A stretch of 26,181 bases of DNA from a virus. Its lineage: Duplodnaviria; Heunggongvirae; Uroviricota; Caudoviricetes. The position numbers and the translations under genes were made by a program. Positions within the stretch are counted from its first letter, which is position 1. The number at the start of each line of letters is the position of its first letter. Below are positions 2,486 to 12,465 of the stretch, one piece after another. Below the pieces are notes generated by a model. It was not told the DNA's origin. It ran no database searches and was given only the letters and a program-made list of their open reading frames with translations. The stretch lies in the IMG/VR virus record IMGVR_UViG_2778261575_000004, one strand, 5' to 3'.

Positions 2486-3502
2486 TTAAATTAAGTTATA
2501 AAGAGGGTTTTTTGTTACTGCATCCTCCAGGTGGTCTGGAGAGAAGTGTGCATAAATCATCGTCATTTTAATATCTGAGTGCCCTAAAATATCACGTAAA
2601 ACGAGTATGTTCCCACCGTTCATCATAAAATGGCTGGCAAATGTATGGCGCAGGACGTGGGTGCATTGGCCTTCCGGTAGTTCAATACCGGCCCGTTTTA
2701 CCGCCCGTTCAAAGGCTTTTCTGCATGGTGTGAATAATTTCCCTCGGTTTTTGGGTAGCTCGTTGTACAGATCCTGAGATATCGGTACGGTACGGTTTTT
2801 TTTACCCTTGGTCTTTGTATAGGTAATCCGGTATTTCGATAGTTGATGGCCCTGCAGGTTTTCAGCTTCACTCCAACGAGCACCGGTTGCTAGGCATATT
2901 TTTGCAATCATTAGCAGACTGGGGCTTTGAGAATCAGCACAGGCATCCAGCAGACGTTTAATTTCCTCCGGGGTTAGGAACGCCAGTTCACCCTCCGTAA
3001 TTTTAAATGTTGGAAGCCCGGCAAGCGGGTTGGGGGCTGACCAGTGGCCCAGCTTTTTCAGTGTACCAAAAACAGATGATAGGTTGCGCTGTTCAAGGTT
3101 TACCGTGCGGGGCTTAACGGGTGACATGAACGAGCCGTCTTCATTTTGGACCTCCCCCTTTAATCTGGCTTCCCGATATTTTGTGAAATCACCTGCTGTC
3201 AGCTCAGAGGCGATGGGATCGCCTAGACCATTACAGATAATTCTAAGTTTCGCCATCAGGCGTTTGGGGTCTGCGAGTGTTTGACCATATAGGGAATACC
3301 ACTGCTCAATCACTTCTGATAATCGCCGCCGATCTTCCTTCTCACCAAGCCATGGCTTTTTGTTTACTTCGTTCATGGTGAAGTTTTCGAATGCTATGGC
3401 TTCGCCTTTCGTGGCAAATTGCTTACGCACGCGCTTGCCATTGCGTCCATTGGGATAGCACTCACACAACCATTTTCCGTTCGGCTGTTTTCTGATGGTC
3501 AT
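2486..3502 (-). CDS. int: Tyrosine integrase, P2/186 Int family
   Basis: 338-aa ORF. N-terminal GRNGKR motif and C-terminal catalytic region (LATGARWSEA...HVLRHTFASHFMMNGGNILVLRDILGHSDIKMTMIYAH) typical of P2-type integrases. Adjacent to the att repeat and to the cI stop codon. Confidence 0.95.
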   Translation of the reverse strand: MTIRKQPNGKWLCECYPNGRNGKRVRKQFATKGEAIAFENFTMNEVNKKPWLGEKEDRRRLSEVIEQWYSLYGQTLADPKRLMAKLRIICNGLGDPIASELTAGDFTKYREARLKGEVQNEDGSFMSPVKPRTVNLEQRNLSSVFGTLKKLGHWSAPNPLAGLPTFKITEGELAFLTPEEIKRLLDACADSQSPSLLMIAKICLATGARWSEAENLQGHQLSKYRITYTKTKGKKNRTVPISQDLYNELPKNRGKLFTPCRKAFERAVKRAGIELPEGQCTHVLRHTFASHFMMNGGNILVLRDILGHSDIKMTMIYAHFSPDHLEDAVTKNPLYNLI

Positions 3503-4148: not shown

Positions 4149-4177
4149 TTGACGTATCAAATATTGGATCGTAGTAT
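4149..4177 (+). promoter_or_regulatory. Candidate rightward early lytic promoter (pR-like)
   Basis: TTGACG (4149-4154), 17-bp spacer, TAGTAT (4172-4177), about 80 bp upstream of the apl start; overlapped by the operator-like repeats. Confidence 0.5.
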
Positions 4178-4530: not shown

Positions 4531-5040
4531 ATGTTTGATTACAAGATTTCCAAACATCCGCATTTCGATGAAGCCTGTAGGGCTTTTGCACTGCGTCACA
4601 ACCTGGTGCAACTGGCAGAACGTGCAGGCATGAATGTACAGATTCTGCGGAACAAGCTGAACCCAGCTCAGCCTCATTTATTAACCGCACCAGAAATCTG
4701 GCTGCTTACCGATCTGACTGAAGATTCAACGCTGGTAGATGGTTTTCTGGCACAGATTCATTGTCTGCCATGTGTACCGATTAATGAGGTGGCAAAAGAG
4801 AAACTGCCACATTACGTCATGAGTGCAACCGCAGAGATCGGGCGTGTTGCTGCAGGTGCGGTATCTGGCGATGTAAAAACCTGTGCCGGTCGTCGTGATG
4901 CTATCAGCAGCATTAACTCTGTAACACGACTGATGGCGCTGGCGGCTGTTTCATTGCAGGCCCGTTTACAGGCTAATCCTGCGATGGCGAGTGCAGTTGA
5001 TACCGTGACTGGCCTCGGTGCTTCATTCGGTTTGCTGTGA
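4531..5040 (+). CDS. cII: CII-like lysogeny establishment regulator
   Basis: 169-aa ORF with strong RBS (AAGGGGG), second gene of the early operon; size and position match 186 CII. Confidence 0.65.
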
Positions 5041-5047
5041 GGTGCTT

Positions 5048-5344
5048 ATGCTGACGAAAGAACCATCATTTGCATCGCTGCTGGTAAAACAAAGCCCGGC
5101 AATGCACTACGGTCACGGCTGGATCATGGGTGAGGATGGTAAACGCTGGCATCCGTGCCGTTCACAAGATGAATTGCTGTCTGAATTGACCACGGGGAAA
5201 CGGAGAAAGTCAAAATGTATGCAGCGGAAAGTGAAGTGGTTTATCAGTTTCGTTACAGAGGGGAGAGTTATTCAGTACCTGAAGATGATTTGCTCTGTTG
5301 TTATCCGTCGTTGTCGGGCGATGGCAGTTACTTTTTCACGCTAA
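5048..5344 (+). CDS. Hypothetical early protein (Fil-like position); 3' end uncertain
   Basis: ORF starting at ATG 5048 after GAGGTG. Its last ~130 nt overlap, in another frame, the better-supported ORF starting at 5215, so the true C-terminus or the reading frame is uncertain. Confidence 0.35.
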   Translation: MLTKEPSFASLLVKQSPAMHYGHGWIMGEDGKRWHPCRSQDELLSELTTGKRRKSKCMQRKVKWFISFVTEGRVIQYLKMICSVVIRRCRAMAVTFSR

Positions 5345-5439
5345 AGGATGGGACGTTTTTACGGGGAGAGCAGGTTAAAGAAACGATACGAAAAAATGTA
5401 TCTCCTCTCGAACGTTACCGTAAGAACAAAGAACAATAG
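5215..5439 (+). CDS. Hypothetical small early protein
   Basis: 74-aa ORF with good RBS (ACGGAGAAAGTCAAAATG) in the early operon. Confidence 0.5.
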   Translation: MYAAESEVVYQFRYRGESYSVPEDDLLCCYPSLSGDGSYFFTLKDGTFLRGEQVKETIRKNVSPLERYRKNKEQ

Positions 5440-5461
5440 TTGCGTTTTGGGGATATGAATT

Positions 5462-5803
5462 ATGGCAATTAATGGCGCTGCAGCGACTGTTCCATTAAGC
5501 CCCGGTGAACGCCTGAATGGACTTAATCATATTGCGGAGTTAAGGGCGAAAGTATTTGGCCTTAATATTGAGTCAGAGCTTGAGCGGTTTATTAAAGATA
5601 TGCGTGATCCACGGGATATCAATAATGAACAAAATAAACGGGCACTGGCTGCCATATTCTTTATGGCAAAAATTCCAGCTGAACGTCATAGCATCAGCAT
5701 TAATGAGCTGACCACTGACGAAAAGCGGGAGTTGATTAAAGCAATGAATCATTTTCGTGCAGTGGTGAGCTTATTTCCCAGACGGCTAACCATGCCGAAT
5801 TAA
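5462..5803 (+). CDS. Hypothetical early protein
   Basis: 113-aa ORF in operon context. Confidence 0.55.
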   Translation: MAINGAAATVPLSPGERLNGLNHIAELRAKVFGLNIESELERFIKDMRDPRDINNEQNKRALAAIFFMAKIPAERHSISINELTTDEKRELIKAMNHFRAVVSLFPRRLTMPN

Positions 5804-5870: not shown

Positions 5871-6104
5871 ATGCGTAATATTGAAACCCTCTCGACTAAA
5901 ACCGGACCGGATGACGCAGGGCTTAATATTTTACTGACAGAGGCTCGTCTGGAAGAACGCCGGGCAAGGGCTGAAGCAATGGCAGCTCGCCTTGATAGCC
6001 TGGCGTGTCATATCACATCCCGCCAGCTAAACCACGTCGAAGCGGCAGAACTGCTGCGTGTAACTGCTGAAGCAATCCAGAACGAAGCGCAGGAGATCCA
6101 CTAA
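5871..6104 (+). CDS. Hypothetical small early protein
   Basis: ATG at 5871 preceded by CAGGAG at 8-nt spacing (the ORF track begins at an in-frame TTG at 5865); stop overlaps the start of the next gene. Confidence 0.55.
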   Translation: MRNIETLSTKTGPDDAGLNILLTEARLEERRARAEAMAARLDSLACHITSRQLNHVEAAELLRVTAEAIQNEAQEIH

Positions 6105-6331
6105 TGGCTGATGCAATGGATCTCGTACAGCAGCGCGTTGAAGAAGAACGCCAGCGCCATATTCGTGCTGCCCGTGCCAAAACACCGGGCGTGTCTCGCG
6201 TGCTTTGTATTGAATGTGAAGCGCCAATTCCGCCAGCACGACGCCGCGCCATTCCGGGAGTGCAGCTTTGCATTACCTGCCAGGAAATCGTAGAGCTGAA
6301 AGGCAAACATTACAACGGAGGTGCTGTATGA
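6104..6331 (+). CDS. TraR/DksA-family C4 zinc-finger protein (P2 orf82-like)
   Basis: 75 aa with CIECEAP-x17-CITCQ (CxxC-N17-CxxC), the TraR/DksA zinc-finger arrangement; located in the early operon before A. Confidence 0.8.
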
Positions 6332-6630
6332 CAGGGGCTGTGCGTATCCATCAATTAAAAATTGCACCTAAGTATTTCAATGCTGTGGTTGCAGGTCAAA
6401 AGACGGTTGAACTTCGTAAAGACGATCGTGGCTATAAAGTTGGTGATGTTCTTTCTCTTTGCGAATGGAAGCATGGCGTATTTACGGGTAGGGAATGGGC
6501 CGCGGTTATCTCTCATGTGCTTCCGGTTAATGACGTCATGGCAGTTTCAGAACAATGGGTGATGCTATCAATTCGCTCATTAACCCCATTAGAAGCTTTA
6601 GGATATGTTATTGCAGGAGGTGCTGTATGA
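6328..6630 (+). CDS. ASCH/PUA-like DUF3850-family protein
   Basis: 100-aa ORF from ATG 6328 (RBS GGAGG); N-terminal [34 protein letters not shown] matches my recollection of the DUF3850 signature; translationally coupled (ATGA overlaps) on both sides. Confidence 0.65.
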
Positions 6631-7484
6631 GCACCATCCTGAAATGGGCGGGAAATAAAACCGCAATTATGTCTGAACTGAAAAAACACCTTCCTGCTGG
6701 CCCGCGACTGGTTGAACCTTTCGCGGGTTCCTGTGCTGTGATGATGGAGACGGATTATCCAAGCTATCTGGTTGCGGATATTAATCCTGATTTAATCAAC
6801 CTCTATAAAAAGGTTGCCGCTGATTGTGAATCGTTTATATCTCGCGCCAGAGTTTTATTTAAGGAAGCAAACAGGGAGGTGGCTTATTACAACATAAGGC
6901 AGGAGTTTAATTACTCAAATGAAATTACTGATTTCATGAAAGCGGTATATTTCCTGTATCTCAATCGTCACGGTTACCGTGGTTTATGTCGCTATAACAA
7001 GAGCGGGCATTTCAACATTCCCTACGGTAATTATAAAAATCCGTATTTCCCAGAAAAAGAAATTCGCGCATTTGCAGAAAAAGCCCAGCGGGCAACGTTT
7101 ATCTGCGCCAGCTTTGATGAAACGCTGGCGATGTTGAAGGCGGGGGATGTGGTGTATTGCGATCCGCCGTATGACGGCACGTTTTCCGGTTATCACACTG
7201 ACGGCTTCACTGAAGATGACCAGTATCACCTGGCATCCGTTCTTGAACATCGGTCATCAGAAGGACATCCGGTCATTGTTTCTAACAGTGACACATCCCT
7301 GATCCGTTCGCTGTATCGCAATTTTACTCACCACTACATCAAGGCAAAACGCAGCATCGGTGTGGCAGCTGGCGAGGGTAAATCAGCAACAGAAATCATT
7401 GCTGTTTCCGGGCCGCGCTGCTGGGTGGGATTTGATTATTCGCGTGGCGTGGATAGTTCTGCCGTGTACGGAGTACGTGCATGA
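6627..7484 (+). CDS. dam: DNA adenine methyltransferase (Dam-type, GATC-class N6-adenine MTase)
   Basis: Start ATG 6627 after AGGAGG. N-terminal KWAGNK and FAGSCAV motifs (AdoMet binding) and a DPPY catalytic motif (VYCDPPY). Confidence 0.9.
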
Positions 7485-9895
7485 GTCATGCCGATATGAA
7501 CAACTGCTGCGGCTTTAACGAAGCTGCCGCATCGTTCTCATGGAACAGCCCGAAAAAGGCCATTAACCCTTATCTGGACCCGGCGGAAGTTGCGCCGGTT
7601 TCTACGCTTTCAAACCTGATCACTCTGTACGCTGCCGATAACGAGCAGGAACAGCTGCGCCGTGAGGCGCTGAGTGATCAGGTCTGGGAGCGTTATTTCT
7701 TTAATGAATCCCGTGATCCTGTCCAGCGCGAAATGGAGCAGGATAAGCTCATTAGTCGGGCAAAGCTGGCGCATGAGCAGCAGCGTTTTAACCCGGACAT
7801 GGTCATTCTGGCAGACGTCAGCGCCCAGCCCTCCCATATCAGCAAGCCGCTGATGCAACGTATTGAATACTTCAGCAGCCTTGGCAGGCCAAAGGCTTAT
7901 TCCCGCTATTTGCGTGAGACGATTAAGCCATGTCTGGAACGGCTGGAGCATGTACGCGACAGTCAGCTATCCACATCTTTTCGCTTTATGGCAAGCCATG
8001 AAGGGCTGGACGGCCTGCTGATTCTGCCTGAAATGAGTCAGGATCAGGTGAAACGCCTGTCCACCCTTGTTGCTGCGCATATGAGCATGTGCCTTGATGC
8101 AGCTTGTGGCGATTTGTATGCCACCGATGACGTTAAGCCAGAAGAAATCCGCAAGACATGGGAAAAGGTGGCAGCAGAAACCCTGCGACTGGATGTCATA
8201 CCGCCTGCGTTTGAGCAACTCCGCCGGAAAAGAAACCGCCGTAAACCCGTGCCATATGAACTCATTCCGGGTTCGCTGGCGCGTATGTTGTGCGCCGATT
8301 GGTGGTACCGGAAATTATGGAAGATGCGTTGCGAATGGCGGGAAGAGCAGTTGCGTGCTGTTTGCCTGGTCAGCAAAAAAGCATCTCCCTATGTCAGCTA
8401 TGAAGCCGTGATGCATAAACGTGAGCAGCGCCGTAAGTCGCTGGAGTTTTTCCGTTCTCATGAACTGGTGAACGAAGACGGCGACACGCTGGACATGGAG
8501 GATGTGGTAAACGCCAGCAGCAGCAACCCTGCGCATCGCCGCAATGAGATGATGGCCTGTGTTAAAGGTCTGGAGCTTATCGCGGAAATGCGCGGTGACT
8601 GCGCCGTTTTCTACACCATCACCTGTCCGTCACGTTTCCATTCCACGCTAAATAACGGCAGGCCCAACCCGACCTGGACAAATACGACGGTAAGACAAAG
8701 CAGTGATTATCTGGTCGGCATGTTTGCTGCATTTCGTAAGGCGATGCACAAAGCCGGATTGCGCTGGTATGGCGTGCGGGTGGCTGAGCCGCATCATGAC
8801 GGTACAGTTCACTGGCACCTGTTGTGTTTTATGCGCAAAAAAGATCGCCGCACCATTACTGCTTTGTTGCGTAAGTTTGCCATTCGTGAAGACCGCGAGG
8901 AGCTGGGTAATAACACGGGACCACGCTTTAAGTCTGAGCTGATAAACCCGCGCAAAGGTACGCCAACAAGCTACATCGCGAAATACATCAGTAAGAACAT
9001 TGACGGGCGTGGTCTGGCTGGCGAGATCAGCAAGGAAACGGGTAAATCCCTGCGTGATAACGCTGAATACGTTAATGCCTGGGCGTCTCTGCATCGTGTT
9101 CAGCAATTCCGCTTCTTTGGCATTCCGGGGCGTCAGGCTTACCGTGAACTGCGATTGCTGGCTGGTCAGGCGGCAAGGCAACAGGGGGACAAAAAAGCAG
9201 GTGCGCCGGTACTGGATAACCCGCGCCTTGATGCAATCCTGGCTGCTGCTGATGCTGGTTGTTTTGCCACCTACATCATGAAGCAGGGCGGCGTACTGGT
9301 TCCCCGCAAATATCACCTCATCAGAACTGCTTATGAAATCAACGAAGAACCGACCGCATATGGCGATCACGGTATTCGTATTTATGGCATCTGGTCACCC
9401 ATTGCAGAGGGCAAGATCTGCACTCATGCGGTGAAGTGGAAAATGGTTCGTAAGGCCGTTGACGTTCAGGAGGCGGCAGCCGACCAGGGCGCTTGCGCCC
9501 CTTGGACTCGTGGCAATAACTGTCCCCTTGCTGAAAATTTGCACCAACAAGGGAAAGACAAATCAACTGATGGGGATACCAGAACGGATATCACCCGTAT
9601 GAATGACAAGGAGTTGCACGATTACCTGCACAGTATGAGCAAAAAAGAGCGCCGGGAACTGACAGCAAGATTACGCCTGGTGAAACCGAAACGGCGTAAA
9701 GACTACAAACAGCGAATTACAGAGTATCAGCGTCAGCAGCTTGTCTATGAACTGAAGTCCAGAGGATTTGATGGCAGCGAGAAAGAAGTCGATTTGCTCC
9801 TTCGCGGTGGCAGTATTCCATCAGGAGCAGGCCTGCGTATCTTCTATCGGAACCAGCGTCTGAAGGAAGATGATAAGTGGCGGAACCTGTATTAA
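7481..9895 (+). CDS. A: Replication initiation endonuclease, P2 gpA family (rolling-circle initiator)
   Basis: 804-aa ORF, ATGA-coupled to dam; contains the HxH metal-binding motif (TVHWHLLCF) and the conserved tyrosine-containing region ([14 protein letters not shown]) typical of gpA-type nickases. Confidence 0.9.
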
Positions 9896-10246: not shown

Positions 10247-10480
10247 ATGCGCATTGAAATAATGATCGATAAAGAGCAGAAGATTAGCCAGTCTACCCTG
10301 GACGCCCTTGAATCCGAGCTTTACCGCAATCTGCGCCCCCTGTATCCCAAAACGGTAATTCGTATCCGCAAAGGTAGCTCTAACGGTGTGGAACTGACCG
10401 GACTGCAACTGGACGAAGAAAGAAAACAAGTGATGAAAATTATGCAGAAGGTGTGGGAAGACGACAGCTGGCTGCATTAG
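10247..10480 (+). CDS. DinI-family protein (Tum C-terminal domain-like)
   Basis: 77 aa beginning MRIEIMIDKEQ...RIRKGSSNGVELTGLQLDEERKQVMKIMQKVWEDDSWLH, which resembles DinI (MRIEVTIAKT...ETWESADDWF). Confidence 0.75.
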   Translation: MRIEIMIDKEQKISQSTLDALESELYRNLRPLYPKTVIRIRKGSSNGVELTGLQLDEERKQVMKIMQKVWEDDSWLH

Positions 10481-10608: not shown

Positions 10609-11349
10609 TCAGTTTTCTTTGAATTTTTCACTTAATCGTTTCGTCAATACTTCGACAGATTCTTTGCGACCGGAGAACAAGTCATTGACGACGTACTCCA
10701 TAATCTCAAAAGCATCCTCAATGTCTTTGACTTTTACTTCATCGTAGGTATGGCTTCCGGCATTTCCTAAAAATTTAATTGCCATAAGAGGTCTTGAAAA
10801 CGATCCGTATAATTCAGGTAGCATCCCTAAACGGTGGTGTAGAGTTATGCGTTTGCCATTATCATTACGTTCAGCTACATCCATAGCGGTTAGCATTCTT
10901 TCAACTGAAATTCGAATTAGGTTTGCTGCTGCGCCAGGCTGTATTAGGAAAATGGAAAATGAGGCTTCAAGCGGTTCGGTAATTTCTTCTGGGCATTTTT
11001 CAGGTATTTCGAAAGGATGCAGTGATGGGTAAAAGGTGAAAGGTCTGTGCCATTGATAGTACTCAATATCATTTCTTTCTTCATCCCAACCTTGTTCCCA
11101 TCCACTCTTACCAGTACAGGCCACAACTTCACCACATTGCATTCTTGAACAGCGGGCCATGCAACTGAAAATAGATGAATCCATTTCTAGTTCAAACCAA
11201 TCTTCACTGCGGAATTTTCGGGTATCATGTGTGTCATACGAGACGAAACTTTCTTTAATGATCTGTAGGGTTTTCTGATTGCAGTTAGGGCAGGGCCACT
11301 CAACCTGCATATCGTGGAAAAACGCACCAGAGAGCTTGTGCACAGTCAT
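10609..11349 (-). CDS. Hypothetical protein: N-terminal Cys-rich zinc-ribbon-like region plus C-terminal DUF4145-like helical domain; candidate defence/exclusion gene at the P2 tin/old position
   Basis: 246-aa ORF with RBS GAGGAA, AT-rich. Cys pairs CPNC (20-23) and C63/C67/C72/C78. C-terminal LIRISVERMLTAM...AIKFLGNAGSHT...VKDIEDAFEIMEYVVNDLF resembles, from memory, the GN.a.H-containing DUF4145 domain. Sits between A/tum and cos, where P2 carries tin and old. Confidence 0.6.
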   Translation of the reverse strand: MTVHKLSGAFFHDMQVEWPCPNCNQKTLQIIKESFVSYDTHDTRKFRSEDWFELEMDSSIFSCMARCSRMQCGEVVACTGKSGWEQGWDEERNDIEYYQWHRPFTFYPSLHPFEIPEKCPEEITEPLEASFSIFLIQPGAAANLIRISVERMLTAMDVAERNDNGKRITLHHRLGMLPELYGSFSRPLMAIKFLGNAGSHTYDEVKVKDIEDAFEIMEYVVNDLFSGRKESVEVLTKRLSEKFKEN

Positions 11350-11638: not shown

Positions 11639-11910
11639 CGCGCGCCGCGGGTTGAAATAGTAAAATTCACTTAGCCTCAGGCCCGCTGATGGTTTTCTTC
11701 TGAAAGGGAGGGCGCGTTTTTGTGCAATCTTGTTTGAAGGGATTTAAATAAATGTTGAATGTGTTCCGGAGTTGGCTGTAGATTTAGTGTTCTGTCACAA
11801 GTTGCAGTGATAGGTAGCAAACCTTTAAAAGGTTCTGCTATTGTTTCATTAAAGATTTATAGTCTTTGTCCGAAAATGACATTAAAGTAGTCGCCTTTAA
11901 TGTCGTAAGC

Positions 11911-12465
11911 ATGAAGGACAGAGAATTGAACTTAGAGCAGATTGCCAGTCAAAGTATAAGTAACCTTCAGTTTCTCCTCGATACTTTGAAGATGCCGTTG
12001 GCTGTTGGTCCAATCAGTGATGAAGACTATGTGATCCTGACCACAGGATACGCTCAGCTAGAATGGGATTATGGTTTTTCTCGGTTTGGCAATCGAAGTG
12101 ATAAGTTTGAATTTTGTTTGAAGCTCCTTGCGGGGCCACTTAGGCATATCCCTTCTGGCGCAGCTATGTGCACCTTTGACGAGGACGCTGGAGTCATAGA
12201 GATCCATTTTGTGGAATCTTTTGTGAAAGATGATGACGTAGAGCACCCTCTTTACGGCAACATGTTCATGGTTACATTGTGGGCGGTATATCTTTTTGGT
12301 AGCGCGGTTGGGTGTCAAGAGATTCGGATCCCTGAAGCCCTGAATCAAAAAGTTGCTGACCACTATAAAAAATTTGGTTTTAAAGGTGATATAAGCTTGC
12401 TTTCGGCACCTTTTGCTACAATAACTGATGTAGTAAGACGCTACATTACTTCTAAGAAACAGTAG
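11911..12465 (+). CDS. Hypothetical protein, cargo between cos and Q (possible degenerate GNAT-like C-terminus)
   Basis: 184 aa from ATG 11911 (the ORF track gives 199 aa from TTG 11866). C-terminal ...ALNQKVADHYKKFGFKGD is reminiscent of the GNAT motif-B signature, but no clear motif A is seen; assignment weak. Confidence 0.5.
   Translation: MKDRELNLEQIASQSISNLQFLLDTLKMPLAVGPISDEDYVILTTGYAQLEWDYGFSRFGNRSDKFEFCLKLLAGPLRHIPSGAAMCTFDEDAGVIEIHFVESFVKDDDVEHPLYGNMFMVTLWAVYLFGSAVGCQEIRIPEALNQKVADHYKKFGFKGDISLLSAPFATITDVVRRYITSKKQ

Follow-up and report, generated by a model that had tools for sequence, protein, structure and literature searches.

The closest described counterparts of the locus reported here are the CP80-CP84 region of phage 186 and the orf80-orf83 region of P2, which share its operon position, its flanks (DUF2732, TraR-type zinc finger, A) and a chain of overlapping stop and start codons. 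The gene order in phage 186 is DUF2732, DksA-type zinc finger, exonuclease, DUF5405, PAPS reductase and A. For P2, the record NC_070904.1 was used, which is one P2 assembly and not the reference entry, and the order therein is TraR, orf83 and A. In the 186 record, these early-operon genes are labeled as 'not essential' and the translation of A is described to require translation through the end of orf84. A second described system is the association of an ASCH-superfamily gene with a gene for an N6-adenine DNA methyltransferase in one operon (Iyer, Zhang and Aravind, 2016; PMC4738411). In this context, ASCH domains were predicted to read m6A by bioinformatics alone, and this role is reported as experimentally unconfirmed (PMC11037411).

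The DNA stretch analyzed here (the window, 26,181 nt) originates from a P2/186-like (Peduoviridae) E. coli prophage. The following features were assigned, in the order of their coordinates:

4149..4177, + strand: candidate early lytic promoter at the pR position, with the CI repressor gene on one side and the rightward operon on the other (consensus scan only; placement analogous to 186 pR)
5871..6104, + strand: DUF2732 gene, equivalent of 186 CP80 (Pfam DUF2732, 3.4e-29; position as in 186)
6104..6331, + strand: TraR/DksA-type C4 zinc-finger gene, 75 aa, equivalent of P2 orf82 and 186 CP81 (Pfam zf-dskA_traR, phrog_54)
6317..6331, no strand: left copy of the 15-bp direct repeat GGAGGTGCTGTATGA, encoding the last TraR residues GGAV and the stop
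6328..6630, + strand: DUF3850/ASCH gene, 100 aa (Pfam DUF3850, 2.3e-24; ASCH, 2.8e-5; AF2 model; Foldseek)
6616..6630, no strand: right copy of the same repeat, encoding the last ASCH residues GGAV and the stop and providing dam with its ribosome-binding site and start
6627..7484, + strand: gene for a D12-class (EcoDam-like) N6-adenine DNA methyltransferase, 285 aa (Pfam MethyltransfD12, 2.7e-77)
7481..9895, + strand: replication gene A, encoding gpA, the rolling-circle initiator endonuclease (Pfam Phage_GPA, 6.8e-127; phrog_91, 1.2e-289)

The open reading frames of TraR, ASCH, Dam and A and their overlaps, as proposed by the sequence-only reading, were borne out by the ORF coordinates, by Pfam and by RefSeq, in which these four genes and that of DUF2732 are also annotated in E. 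coli prophages of 98.5% identity. Likewise, the assignments to a TraR zinc finger, DUF3850/ASCH and Dam were confirmed by HMM search with Pfam. According to the ORF coordinates, the DUF2732 stop and the TraR start overlap as TAATG, and the ATGA overlaps on which the translational coupling of the genes before A had been based are present at all three junctions (TraR/ASCH, ASCH/Dam and Dam/gpA). Antisense ORFs across 6013-6367 were rejected as spurious due to their collision with well-supported + strand genes. The TraR-ASCH-Dam-A order is an ordinary, previously annotated arrangement and not a new system. There is little new in the annotation, as orphan phage Dam, TraR-like and DUF3850 proteins are all routine PGAP calls, and dozens of complete E. 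coli genomes contain TraR, ASCH and Dam in this arrangement.

The DUF2732 gene is a conserved operon member located 5' of TraR. The TraR protein matches Pfam zf-dskA_traR (3.7e-11; 43.3 bits with a cut-off of 24.9) and phrog_54 (1.7e-30), and its four cysteines (CxxC...CxxC) are C35, C38, C56 and C59. Matches were also obtained to E. coli YbiI (2KGO, 6.5e-11) and to the F-plasmid TraR from RNA polymerase complexes (5W1S/6N57, 3.5e-9). The N-terminus is MADAMD, in which D3 and D6 are acidic, presumably as in F TraR. TraR had been counted as part of an insertion before A, which is not so: P2 and 186 have the gene at the equivalent place, and it belongs to the core genes of the early operon without being essential.

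The interval from TraR to A is a variable slot, and its cargo is non-essential and translationally coupled. Of 79 186-like contigs, 27 have an empty slot, and occupied slots contain exonuclease, DUF5405, PAPS reductase, C5 methyltransferase, ASCH or Dam genes in varying combinations. Whereas 186 carries exonuclease, DUF5405 and PAPS reductase and P2 carries orf83 (DUF5405-like), the cargo of this phage consists of ASCH and Dam; the earlier statement that Dam is missing from this place in P2 and 186 agrees with the gene orders of the 186 record and NC_070904.1. The stop/start overlaps are common to all slot cassettes because the translation of A, as annotated for 186 and by analogy here, would depend on the translation of the preceding gene, to which each cassette would thereby be coupled. 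Since every slot cassette has such an ATGA overlap, the coupling holds no information on a functional ASCH-Dam pair and was wrongly taken as a sign of ASCH working with Dam. The GC contents of the dam and ASCH genes (46.6% and 43.7%, respectively) are lower than those of TraR (54.8%) and gpA (52.7%), which fits the earlier view of both genes as accessory. The slot of this phage would hold two independently acquired lower-GC cassettes, dam and ASCH. The reading that we regard as probable is that of a cargo slot in the early lytic operon, containing an independently acquired orphan dam of the GATC type and an optional ASCH cassette.

The ASCH cassette is a clean 299-bp indel bounded by the perfect 15-bp direct repeat GGAGGTGCTGTATGA, which consists of the Shine-Dalgarno sequence, a spacer and the ATGA stop/start overlap. 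Two perfect copies of the repeat at a distance of 299 bp were found in 44 of 45 ASCH-positive loci, and one copy in 72 of 75 ASCH-negative loci. Phage Cartapus and 74 of the 80 closest dam loci are without ASCH, with exact boundaries, and the same dam allele (96-100% identity) is found both with and without it. Among 5,426 complete E. coli genomes, the dam allele is present in 1,232 and ASCH in about 80 (77-81); about 93-94% of the prophages carrying the allele are without ASCH. On a tree of the flanks, which is confounded by phage recombination and biased sampling, the ASCH state changes at least seven times by parsimony. The cassette would be gained or lost precisely at the repeat, that is, at a ribosome-binding site with an ATGA junction. 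Dam and ASCH are separate cassettes, and the sequence-only reading of a single ASCH-Dam module has to be given up, ASCH being an indel of its own that is absent from about 93% of the prophages with this dam allele. A useful result is that the TraR-to-A interval of P2/186-like phages serves as a slot for cassettes, the boundaries of which are set precisely by junction repeats. In addition, near-identical natural E. coli prophages with and without the 299-bp cassette provide a clean genetic handle.

The Dam protein gave 260.4 bits with PF02086 (curated cut-off 22) and covers positions 1-253 of the 253 profile positions. Its match to the E. coli Dam (EcoDam) structures 2G1P/4GOL has an E-value of 2.8e-74 and 48% identity over 258 columns. 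The catalytic motif IV, D179-P-P-Y182, is aligned to D181-Y184 of EcoDam, and six of the seven GATC-reading residues, the roles of which are described for EcoDam (PMC4417163), are identical (K9, Y119, L122, R124, P134 and Y138). The D12-class fold across the full Pfam profile, the DPPY motif, the GATC contacts and the missing partner nuclease are thus shared with EcoDam. In contrast to EcoDam, N120 is Arg and R137 is Asn, the AdoMet motif I (FxGxG) is F32-A-G34-S-C36 instead of F-V-G-A-G, with the third Gly replaced by Cys, a 22-residue C-terminal tail reaches the start of A, and the gene is located within a phage early operon. As the GATC-contact residues of EcoDam and the DPPY motif are kept, the protein probably methylates GATC as an orphan enzyme encoded in the early lytic operon. 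A literature search on Dam of P2-like phages or Fels-2 revealed nothing specific. If made from the early lytic promoter, Dam would hold the fast-replicating phage DNA fully methylated, which would guard it against GATC-cutting restriction and would bypass the hemimethylated state read by the host proteins SeqA and MutH. GATC sites are not avoided in the prophage, with 76 observed and 81 expected.

Dam-class enzymes also serve type II restriction-modification systems such as DpnII (match to 2DPM, 5.9e-34), and prophage cargo often gives host phenotypes. Dam might on these grounds be part of a restriction-modification or defense system, or a lysogenic-conversion gene that reprograms host expression, but this is highly improbable. 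In the ORF list and by Pfam, no restriction or nuclease gene was found next to dam, which is flanked by ASCH and gpA, and the best PADLOC model is that of an orphan methyltransferase (1.3e-111); a type II restriction-modification system was ruled out for these reasons. Furthermore, GATC is already methylated by E. coli, and dam lacks a promoter-like site of its own and is one of the genes within the early lytic operon. In the consensus scan, no promoter-like site was found on the + strand between the pR-position candidate and ASCH/dam, and terminator-like matches occurred at chance level only. Rfam families and tRNAs were not found in the window. By likeness to the 186 pR operon, the operon genes would be expressed in the lytic phase. 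This analogy would argue against an influence on the expression of host genes in the lysogenic state, a function that had been suggested for Dam and that is disfavored in this respect.

The ASCH protein has a full-length match to DUF3850 (PF12961; 85.8 bits with a cut-off of 22.9). Its signature GxKxxExR is G23-Q-K25-T-V-E28-L-R30, and K25, E28 and R30 show no or almost no variation among 26 relatives. The AF2 model (pLDDT 91, pTM 0.81) is a PUA-like beta-barrel. As best structural match, Foldseek reported 3IUW from Enterococcus faecalis (5.5e-9), with a target-normalized TM of 0.90 and an rmsd of 1.7 Å, followed by YqfB and ZmASCH; the ASCH domain of TRIP4 was matched as well. The full-length Pfam match, the signature and a superposable predicted barrel are shared with 3IUW and DUF3850, while the ASCH subfamily differs from other DUF3850 proteins in an additional C-terminal helix (residues about 87-95). 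The dN/dS of the ORF is about 0.08-0.10 in comparison to relatives of 70-80% identity. This strong purifying selection identifies it as a real gene.

YqfB-type amidohydrolases, which act on N4-acetylcytidine, share the fold class, and K25 and R30 of the conserved octapeptide in ASCH align with K21 and R26 of YqfB. However, the Foldseek match is weak (query-normalized TM 0.55, 13% identity), the nucleophile Thr24 of YqfB is replaced by Glu28 and YqfB Glu74 has no aligned equivalent. An ac4C amidohydrolase of the YqfB type (triad Lys21-Thr24-Glu74) was ruled out due to the missing Thr nucleophile and the unalignable Glu74. In the literature, no experimentally demonstrated function was found for any DUF3850 member, and the only related experiment found describes the binding of CTP by a ParB-CTPase-DUF3850 fusion protein (PMC12704722, bioRxiv version). 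ASCH would most likely bind a flipped-out nucleic-acid base, or act on it, in the course of early replication.

Close relatives of ASCH (at least 64% identity) are located directly 5' of dam in 89 of 89 loci and in at least six gene contexts. These comprise 80 of 80 IMG/VR loci, 6 of 6 species-representative genomes, where the tighter ASCH alignment yielded just six loci, and 3 of 3 divergent E. coli copies. The adjacency is therefore conserved beyond this phage. In lineages whose Dam shares about 50% and whose gpA shares about 35% identity with the proteins of the window, ASCH is 68-74% identical. Other cassettes vary on both sides of the ASCH-dam block. The subfamily is narrow and enterobacterial, with just 3 clusters at E<=1e-30 among the 16,775 clusters (50% identity) of the DUF3850 family.

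This fixed position in several architectures speaks for a functional pair, in which ASCH reads m6A at GATC or tunes the activity or specificity of Dam. Such a pair would also agree with a Dam(PF05869)-DUF3850 fusion encoded on an unrelated viral contig, with a separate lineage in which a DUF3850 gene is overlapped at its 5' end by a D12 methyltransferase gene, with the association predicted by Iyer et al. (PMC4738411) and with the conserved polar pocket signature in a PUA-like fold. It is nevertheless rather unlikely. Besides the large majority of same-dam prophages without ASCH, more distant DUF3850 genes adjoin gene A in slots without Dam in 19 of 80 186-like contigs, in 36 of 80 P2-like contigs and in Pantoea prophages, so that a dependence of ASCH on the phage Dam is not supported. 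In Lonsdalea, ASCH and dam are separated by an exonuclease gene. When the wider family was surveyed at 74 distinct viral loci, a DNA methyltransferase was the immediate neighbor in three, plus the one fusion, where distant D12 neighbors were called by Pfam, as phmmer with the Dam of the window as query missed them. The DUF3850 copies of T1-like phages and Webervirus are not adjacent to a methyltransferase, and a general linkage between DUF3850 and methyltransferases is weak. An m6A-reading ASCH, moreover, is still without experimental support (PMC11037411).

Of the suggested ASCH/Dam co-occurrence, the adjacency in all 89 close relatives stands, but mutual dependence does not, dam occurring without ASCH, and DUF3850 genes without Dam in the slot. 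Within the probable cargo-slot reading, the adjacency is to be seen as a conserved block inside one narrow ASCH subfamily that is obligatory for neither gene. The pairing of Iyer et al. likewise has an ASCH-superfamily gene in an operon beside an N6-adenine DNA methyltransferase gene. Unlike in that pairing, both genes turn over independently here, and ASCH relatives commonly have no adjacent methyltransferase. The subfamily, which always directly precedes a phage dam, might conceivably, if improbably, be dedicated to reading or modulating the methylation of GATC adenines; it could, e.g., sense hemi- versus fully methylated phage DNA in rolling-circle replication. Since the hosts are dam+, ASCH may also read host-made m6A. 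If such a reader were confirmed, an ASCH-m6A pair would for the first time be accessible to experiments, with natural isogenic prophages differing only by the cassette. The prediction that ASCH domains read adenine methylation, still unconfirmed after a decade, could be put to the test with the natural allele pair.

Finally, ASCH may be a counter-defense or host-takeover protein that is unrelated to methylation and uses the permissive slot; it could, for instance, hide or process a feature of nucleic acids that host immunity recognizes. The gene is small, optional, early, lower in GC, located in a variable cargo slot and under strong purifying selection, all of which would suit such a role. 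However, PADLOC gave no significant match for ASCH (weakest E 0.004) or TraR, no support was found in the literature and the sequence indicates no specific target, which makes this explanation quite improbable. The size and spread of the family (562 phage records and the 16,775 clusters given above) also fit a counter-defense role, as do the usual neighbors in the wider family, which are typically early, replication or nucleotide-metabolism genes. This very large and phage-rich family recurs beside A in at least four arrangements.

The window contains a P2/186-like prophage whose integration site adjoins the host gene csiD. Its early operon comprises the following genes, which were assigned unambiguously by Pfam and PHROG:

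4531-5040, + strand, CII
5215-5439, + strand, 74-aa ORF between CII and DUF5347 (phrog_4312, no Pfam match)
5462-5803, + strand, DUF5347
5871-6104, + strand, DUF2732
6104-6331, + strand, TraR/DksA zinc finger
6328-6630, + strand, DUF3850/ASCH
6627-7484, + strand, Dam
7481-9895, + strand, replication gene A

The successive junctions from DUF2732 to A are TAATG, ATGA, ATGA and ATGA, and the identical five-gene set is annotated by RefSeq in E. coli prophages with 98.5% sequence identity, in agreement with the gene set and overlaps described in the sequence-only reading. The 74-aa ORF occupies the position of fil and dhr in phage 186; a related E. coli prophage carries a truncated Fil pseudogene there.

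The TraR-like protein, with four cysteines (CxxC...CxxC), is similar to E. coli YbiI and to the F-plasmid TraR of structures determined with RNA polymerase. It had been proposed as part of a TraR/ASCH/Dam insertion, which was not borne out, as TraR belongs to the core in comparisons with phages 186 and P2. The variable part is the slot between TraR and A. In phage 186 it holds an exonuclease, DUF5405 and a PAPS reductase between the DksA-like zinc finger and A, all annotated as 'not essential', and in the P2 record NC_070904.1 TraR is followed by orf83 and then A. TraR abuts A in 27 of 79 186-like viral contigs and lies up to ~1.85 kb from it in the others. Further slot contents are a C5 methyltransferase and proteins of 276 and 201 aa, each without a Pfam match. 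Since the junctions of several lineages share the style 'GGnGGnGC...ATG(A)', the ATGA chain reflects a rule of the slot and is not evidence for an ASCH-Dam complex. According to the phage 186 record, translation of A apparently needs translation through the end of orf84, and a terminator is placed just within A. Richer slots were observed in Kluyvera sichuanensis (L255, 3393-6161; TraR-201aa-ASCH-Dam-C5 cytosine methyltransferase-A) and Lonsdalea (L163, 4001-6772; TraR-ASCH-RNase_T exonuclease-Dam-PAPS reductase-A).

Within this slot, the ASCH gene is a separate 299-bp cassette. The 15-bp sequence GGAGGTGCTGTATGA, which comprises the Shine-Dalgarno sequence, the spacer and the ATGA overlap, is directly repeated without mismatch at 6317-6331 and 6616-6630. 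In phage Cartapus, TraR joins Dam directly via one copy of the 15-mer, a difference of exactly 299 bp. Two perfect copies 299 bp apart were found in 44 of 45 ASCH-positive loci, and one copy in 72 of 75 ASCH-negative loci. Among the best 80 IMG/VR contigs by dam (96-100% identical), a selection in which close relatives are over-sampled, 74 have the empty site and six the cassette. The dam gene of the window is present in 1,232 of 5,426 complete E. coli genomes and the ASCH gene in 77-81. A neighbour-joining tree of the 2.3 kb flanks requires at least seven changes of ASCH state, a count confounded by biased sampling and phage recombination, and suggests that ASCH was repeatedly lost, gained or recombined. 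The G + C content of ASCH (43.7%) and dam (46.6%) is below that of TraR (54.8%) and A (52.7%). The original event may have been an insertion or a deletion; the cassette could be lost through recombination or slippage between the repeats, or alternatively exchanged via homologous recombination in the flanks.

The ASCH protein was assigned to DUF3850 (2.3e-24), and its residues G23, K25, E28 and R30 make up the ASCH signature GxKxxExR. Its AlphaFold2 model is confident (pLDDT 91) and, among solved structures, most similar to 3IUW, a DUF3850 protein (target-normalised TM 0.90), followed by YqfB, ZmASCH and the TRIP4 ASCH domain. A YqfB-type amidohydrolase was ruled out; the nucleophile Thr24 of YqfB corresponds to Glu28. 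The gene is functional as judged by a dN/dS of ~0.08-0.10. DUF3850 is a very large family (16,775 clusters at 50% identity), of which the subfamily of the window is a narrow twig with only three clusters at E<=1e-30.

For this subfamily the adjacency to Dam is conserved. The dam gene lies directly downstream of ASCH (at least 67% identical) in all of the best 80 IMG/VR loci, even in lineages with ~50% identity in Dam and ~35% in the A protein, as well as in 6/6 species-representative genomes and 3/3 divergent E. coli copies. The contexts vary: TraR-ASCH-Dam-A, TraR-exo-78aa-ASCH-Dam-A, DUF2732-exo-ASCH-Dam-A, DUF2732-like-ASCH-Dam, TraR-201aa-ASCH-Dam-C5MTase-A and TraR-ASCH-Dam-PAPS reductase-A. 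Two unrelated viral lineages also link the domains, the first in an order reverse to that of the window genes:

L092 (viral contig IMGVR_UViG_3300010261_000168), 3036-3731, single ORF of 232 aa with two fused domains, a Dam-type N6-adenine methyltransferase (PF05869, residues 8-147) followed by DUF3850 (157-231)
L084, 1614-2626, and L090, 2746-3758, two genes, of which the first, for a D12-class methyltransferase (258 aa), extends ~22 nt into the 5' end of the second, a DUF3850 gene

From such associations ASCH was predicted to be an m6A reader (Iyer et al., 2016; PMC4738411), a prediction still unconfirmed according to PMC11037411. The functional idea of the sequence-only reading thus matches one already in the literature. 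That this ASCH subfamily is a dedicated reader or modulator of GATC methylation is nevertheless improbable. Against a tie between ASCH and Dam, the cassette is missing from ~93% of the prophages with the same dam, the gene order in Pantoea prophages is DUF2732-DUF3850-DUF5405-A without dam, and an exonuclease gene separates ASCH from dam in the Lonsdalea prophage. Another DUF3850 subfamily (35-45% identical to that of the window) lies directly 5' of A in 19 of the best 80 186-like contigs, overlapping the start of A and leaving no space for a methyltransferase gene (e.g., L272, 4217-4498), and an orf91-type DUF3850 directly 3' of A in 36 of the best 80 P2-like contigs. The tblastn search for methyltransferases used two Dam queries and covers only this class, but identified genes fill the whole slot in the 186-like loci. 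The N-terminal half of P2 orf91 (4995-5447 in NC_070904.1) is DUF3850 (44% identical); a BspRI-like C5 methylase is located ~450 bp downstream in this record. T1-like and Webervirus copies do not adjoin a methyltransferase. In the DUF3850 family at large, sampled at 74 distinct loci, DNA methyltransferases are immediate neighbours in only three, versus ParA-type ATPases in 16, based on a simple ORF rule for the adjacent gene on each side. These ATPases adjoin long proteins (~400-500 aa) with a C-terminal DUF3850 domain, some with a detectable ParB N-terminal domain; ParB-CTPase-DUF3850 fusions encoded next to parA have been described (PMC12704722). In Peduoviridae, the recurring neighbour of DUF3850 genes is the gene-A region, not Dam, and the ASCH-Dam block is lineage-specific. 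The proposed single module holds as adjacency in one subfamily, whereas the sequence comparison does not support mutual dependence. The arrangement is real but ordinary.

Dam aligns with E. coli Dam structures (2.8e-74; 48% identity across 258 aligned columns) and retains DPPY. Of the seven GATC-reading residues of EcoDam (PMC4417163), six are kept (K9, Y119, L122, R124, P134, Y138). EcoDam N120 is replaced by Arg and R137 by Asn, and AdoMet motif I reads F-A-G-S-C (residues 32-36) instead of F-V-G-A-G. The changed residues (32-36, 118, 135) may influence how Dam binds its cofactor or contacts base pairs, or its processivity. The top PADLOC model is an orphan methyltransferase, no nuclease gene adjoining dam was found, and the prophage, with 76 GATC sites where 81 are expected, shows no avoidance of this motif. 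In E. coli O19:H7 730V1 (NZ_CP061764.1, 3304248-3305874), an IS1 element interrupts the homologous phage dam.

By analogy to phage 186, ASCH and dam would be transcribed only in lytic growth from a pR-equivalent promoter, for which a candidate is located at 4149-4177; no other promoter-like site was found on the + strand between it and dam. Dam would then methylate GATC on phage DNA during replication, and the ASCH protein may bind or process a flipped base in nucleic acid.

Additional genes were noted outside the early operon:

1-978, - strand, host gene csiD
1821-2471, - strand, 216-aa ORF (phrog_21256, unknown function)
2486-3502, - strand, integrase
10609-11349, - strand, 246-aa DUF4145 protein (Pfam 4.9e-13; phrog_1305)
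11866-12465, + strand, 199-aa protein of unknown function (phrog_4350)

The 216-aa ORF, with a very low G + C content of 33% and no match in Pfam or PADLOC, is probably prophage-end cargo. The last two genes are cargo of ~42% G + C in the P2 tin/old-type hotspot, flanked by a DinI-like gene (10247-10480) on one side and the portal gene on the other. The DUF4145 protein weakly matches PD-T7-4 in PADLOC (1.6e-5), and the pair is possibly an anti-phage defence locus.
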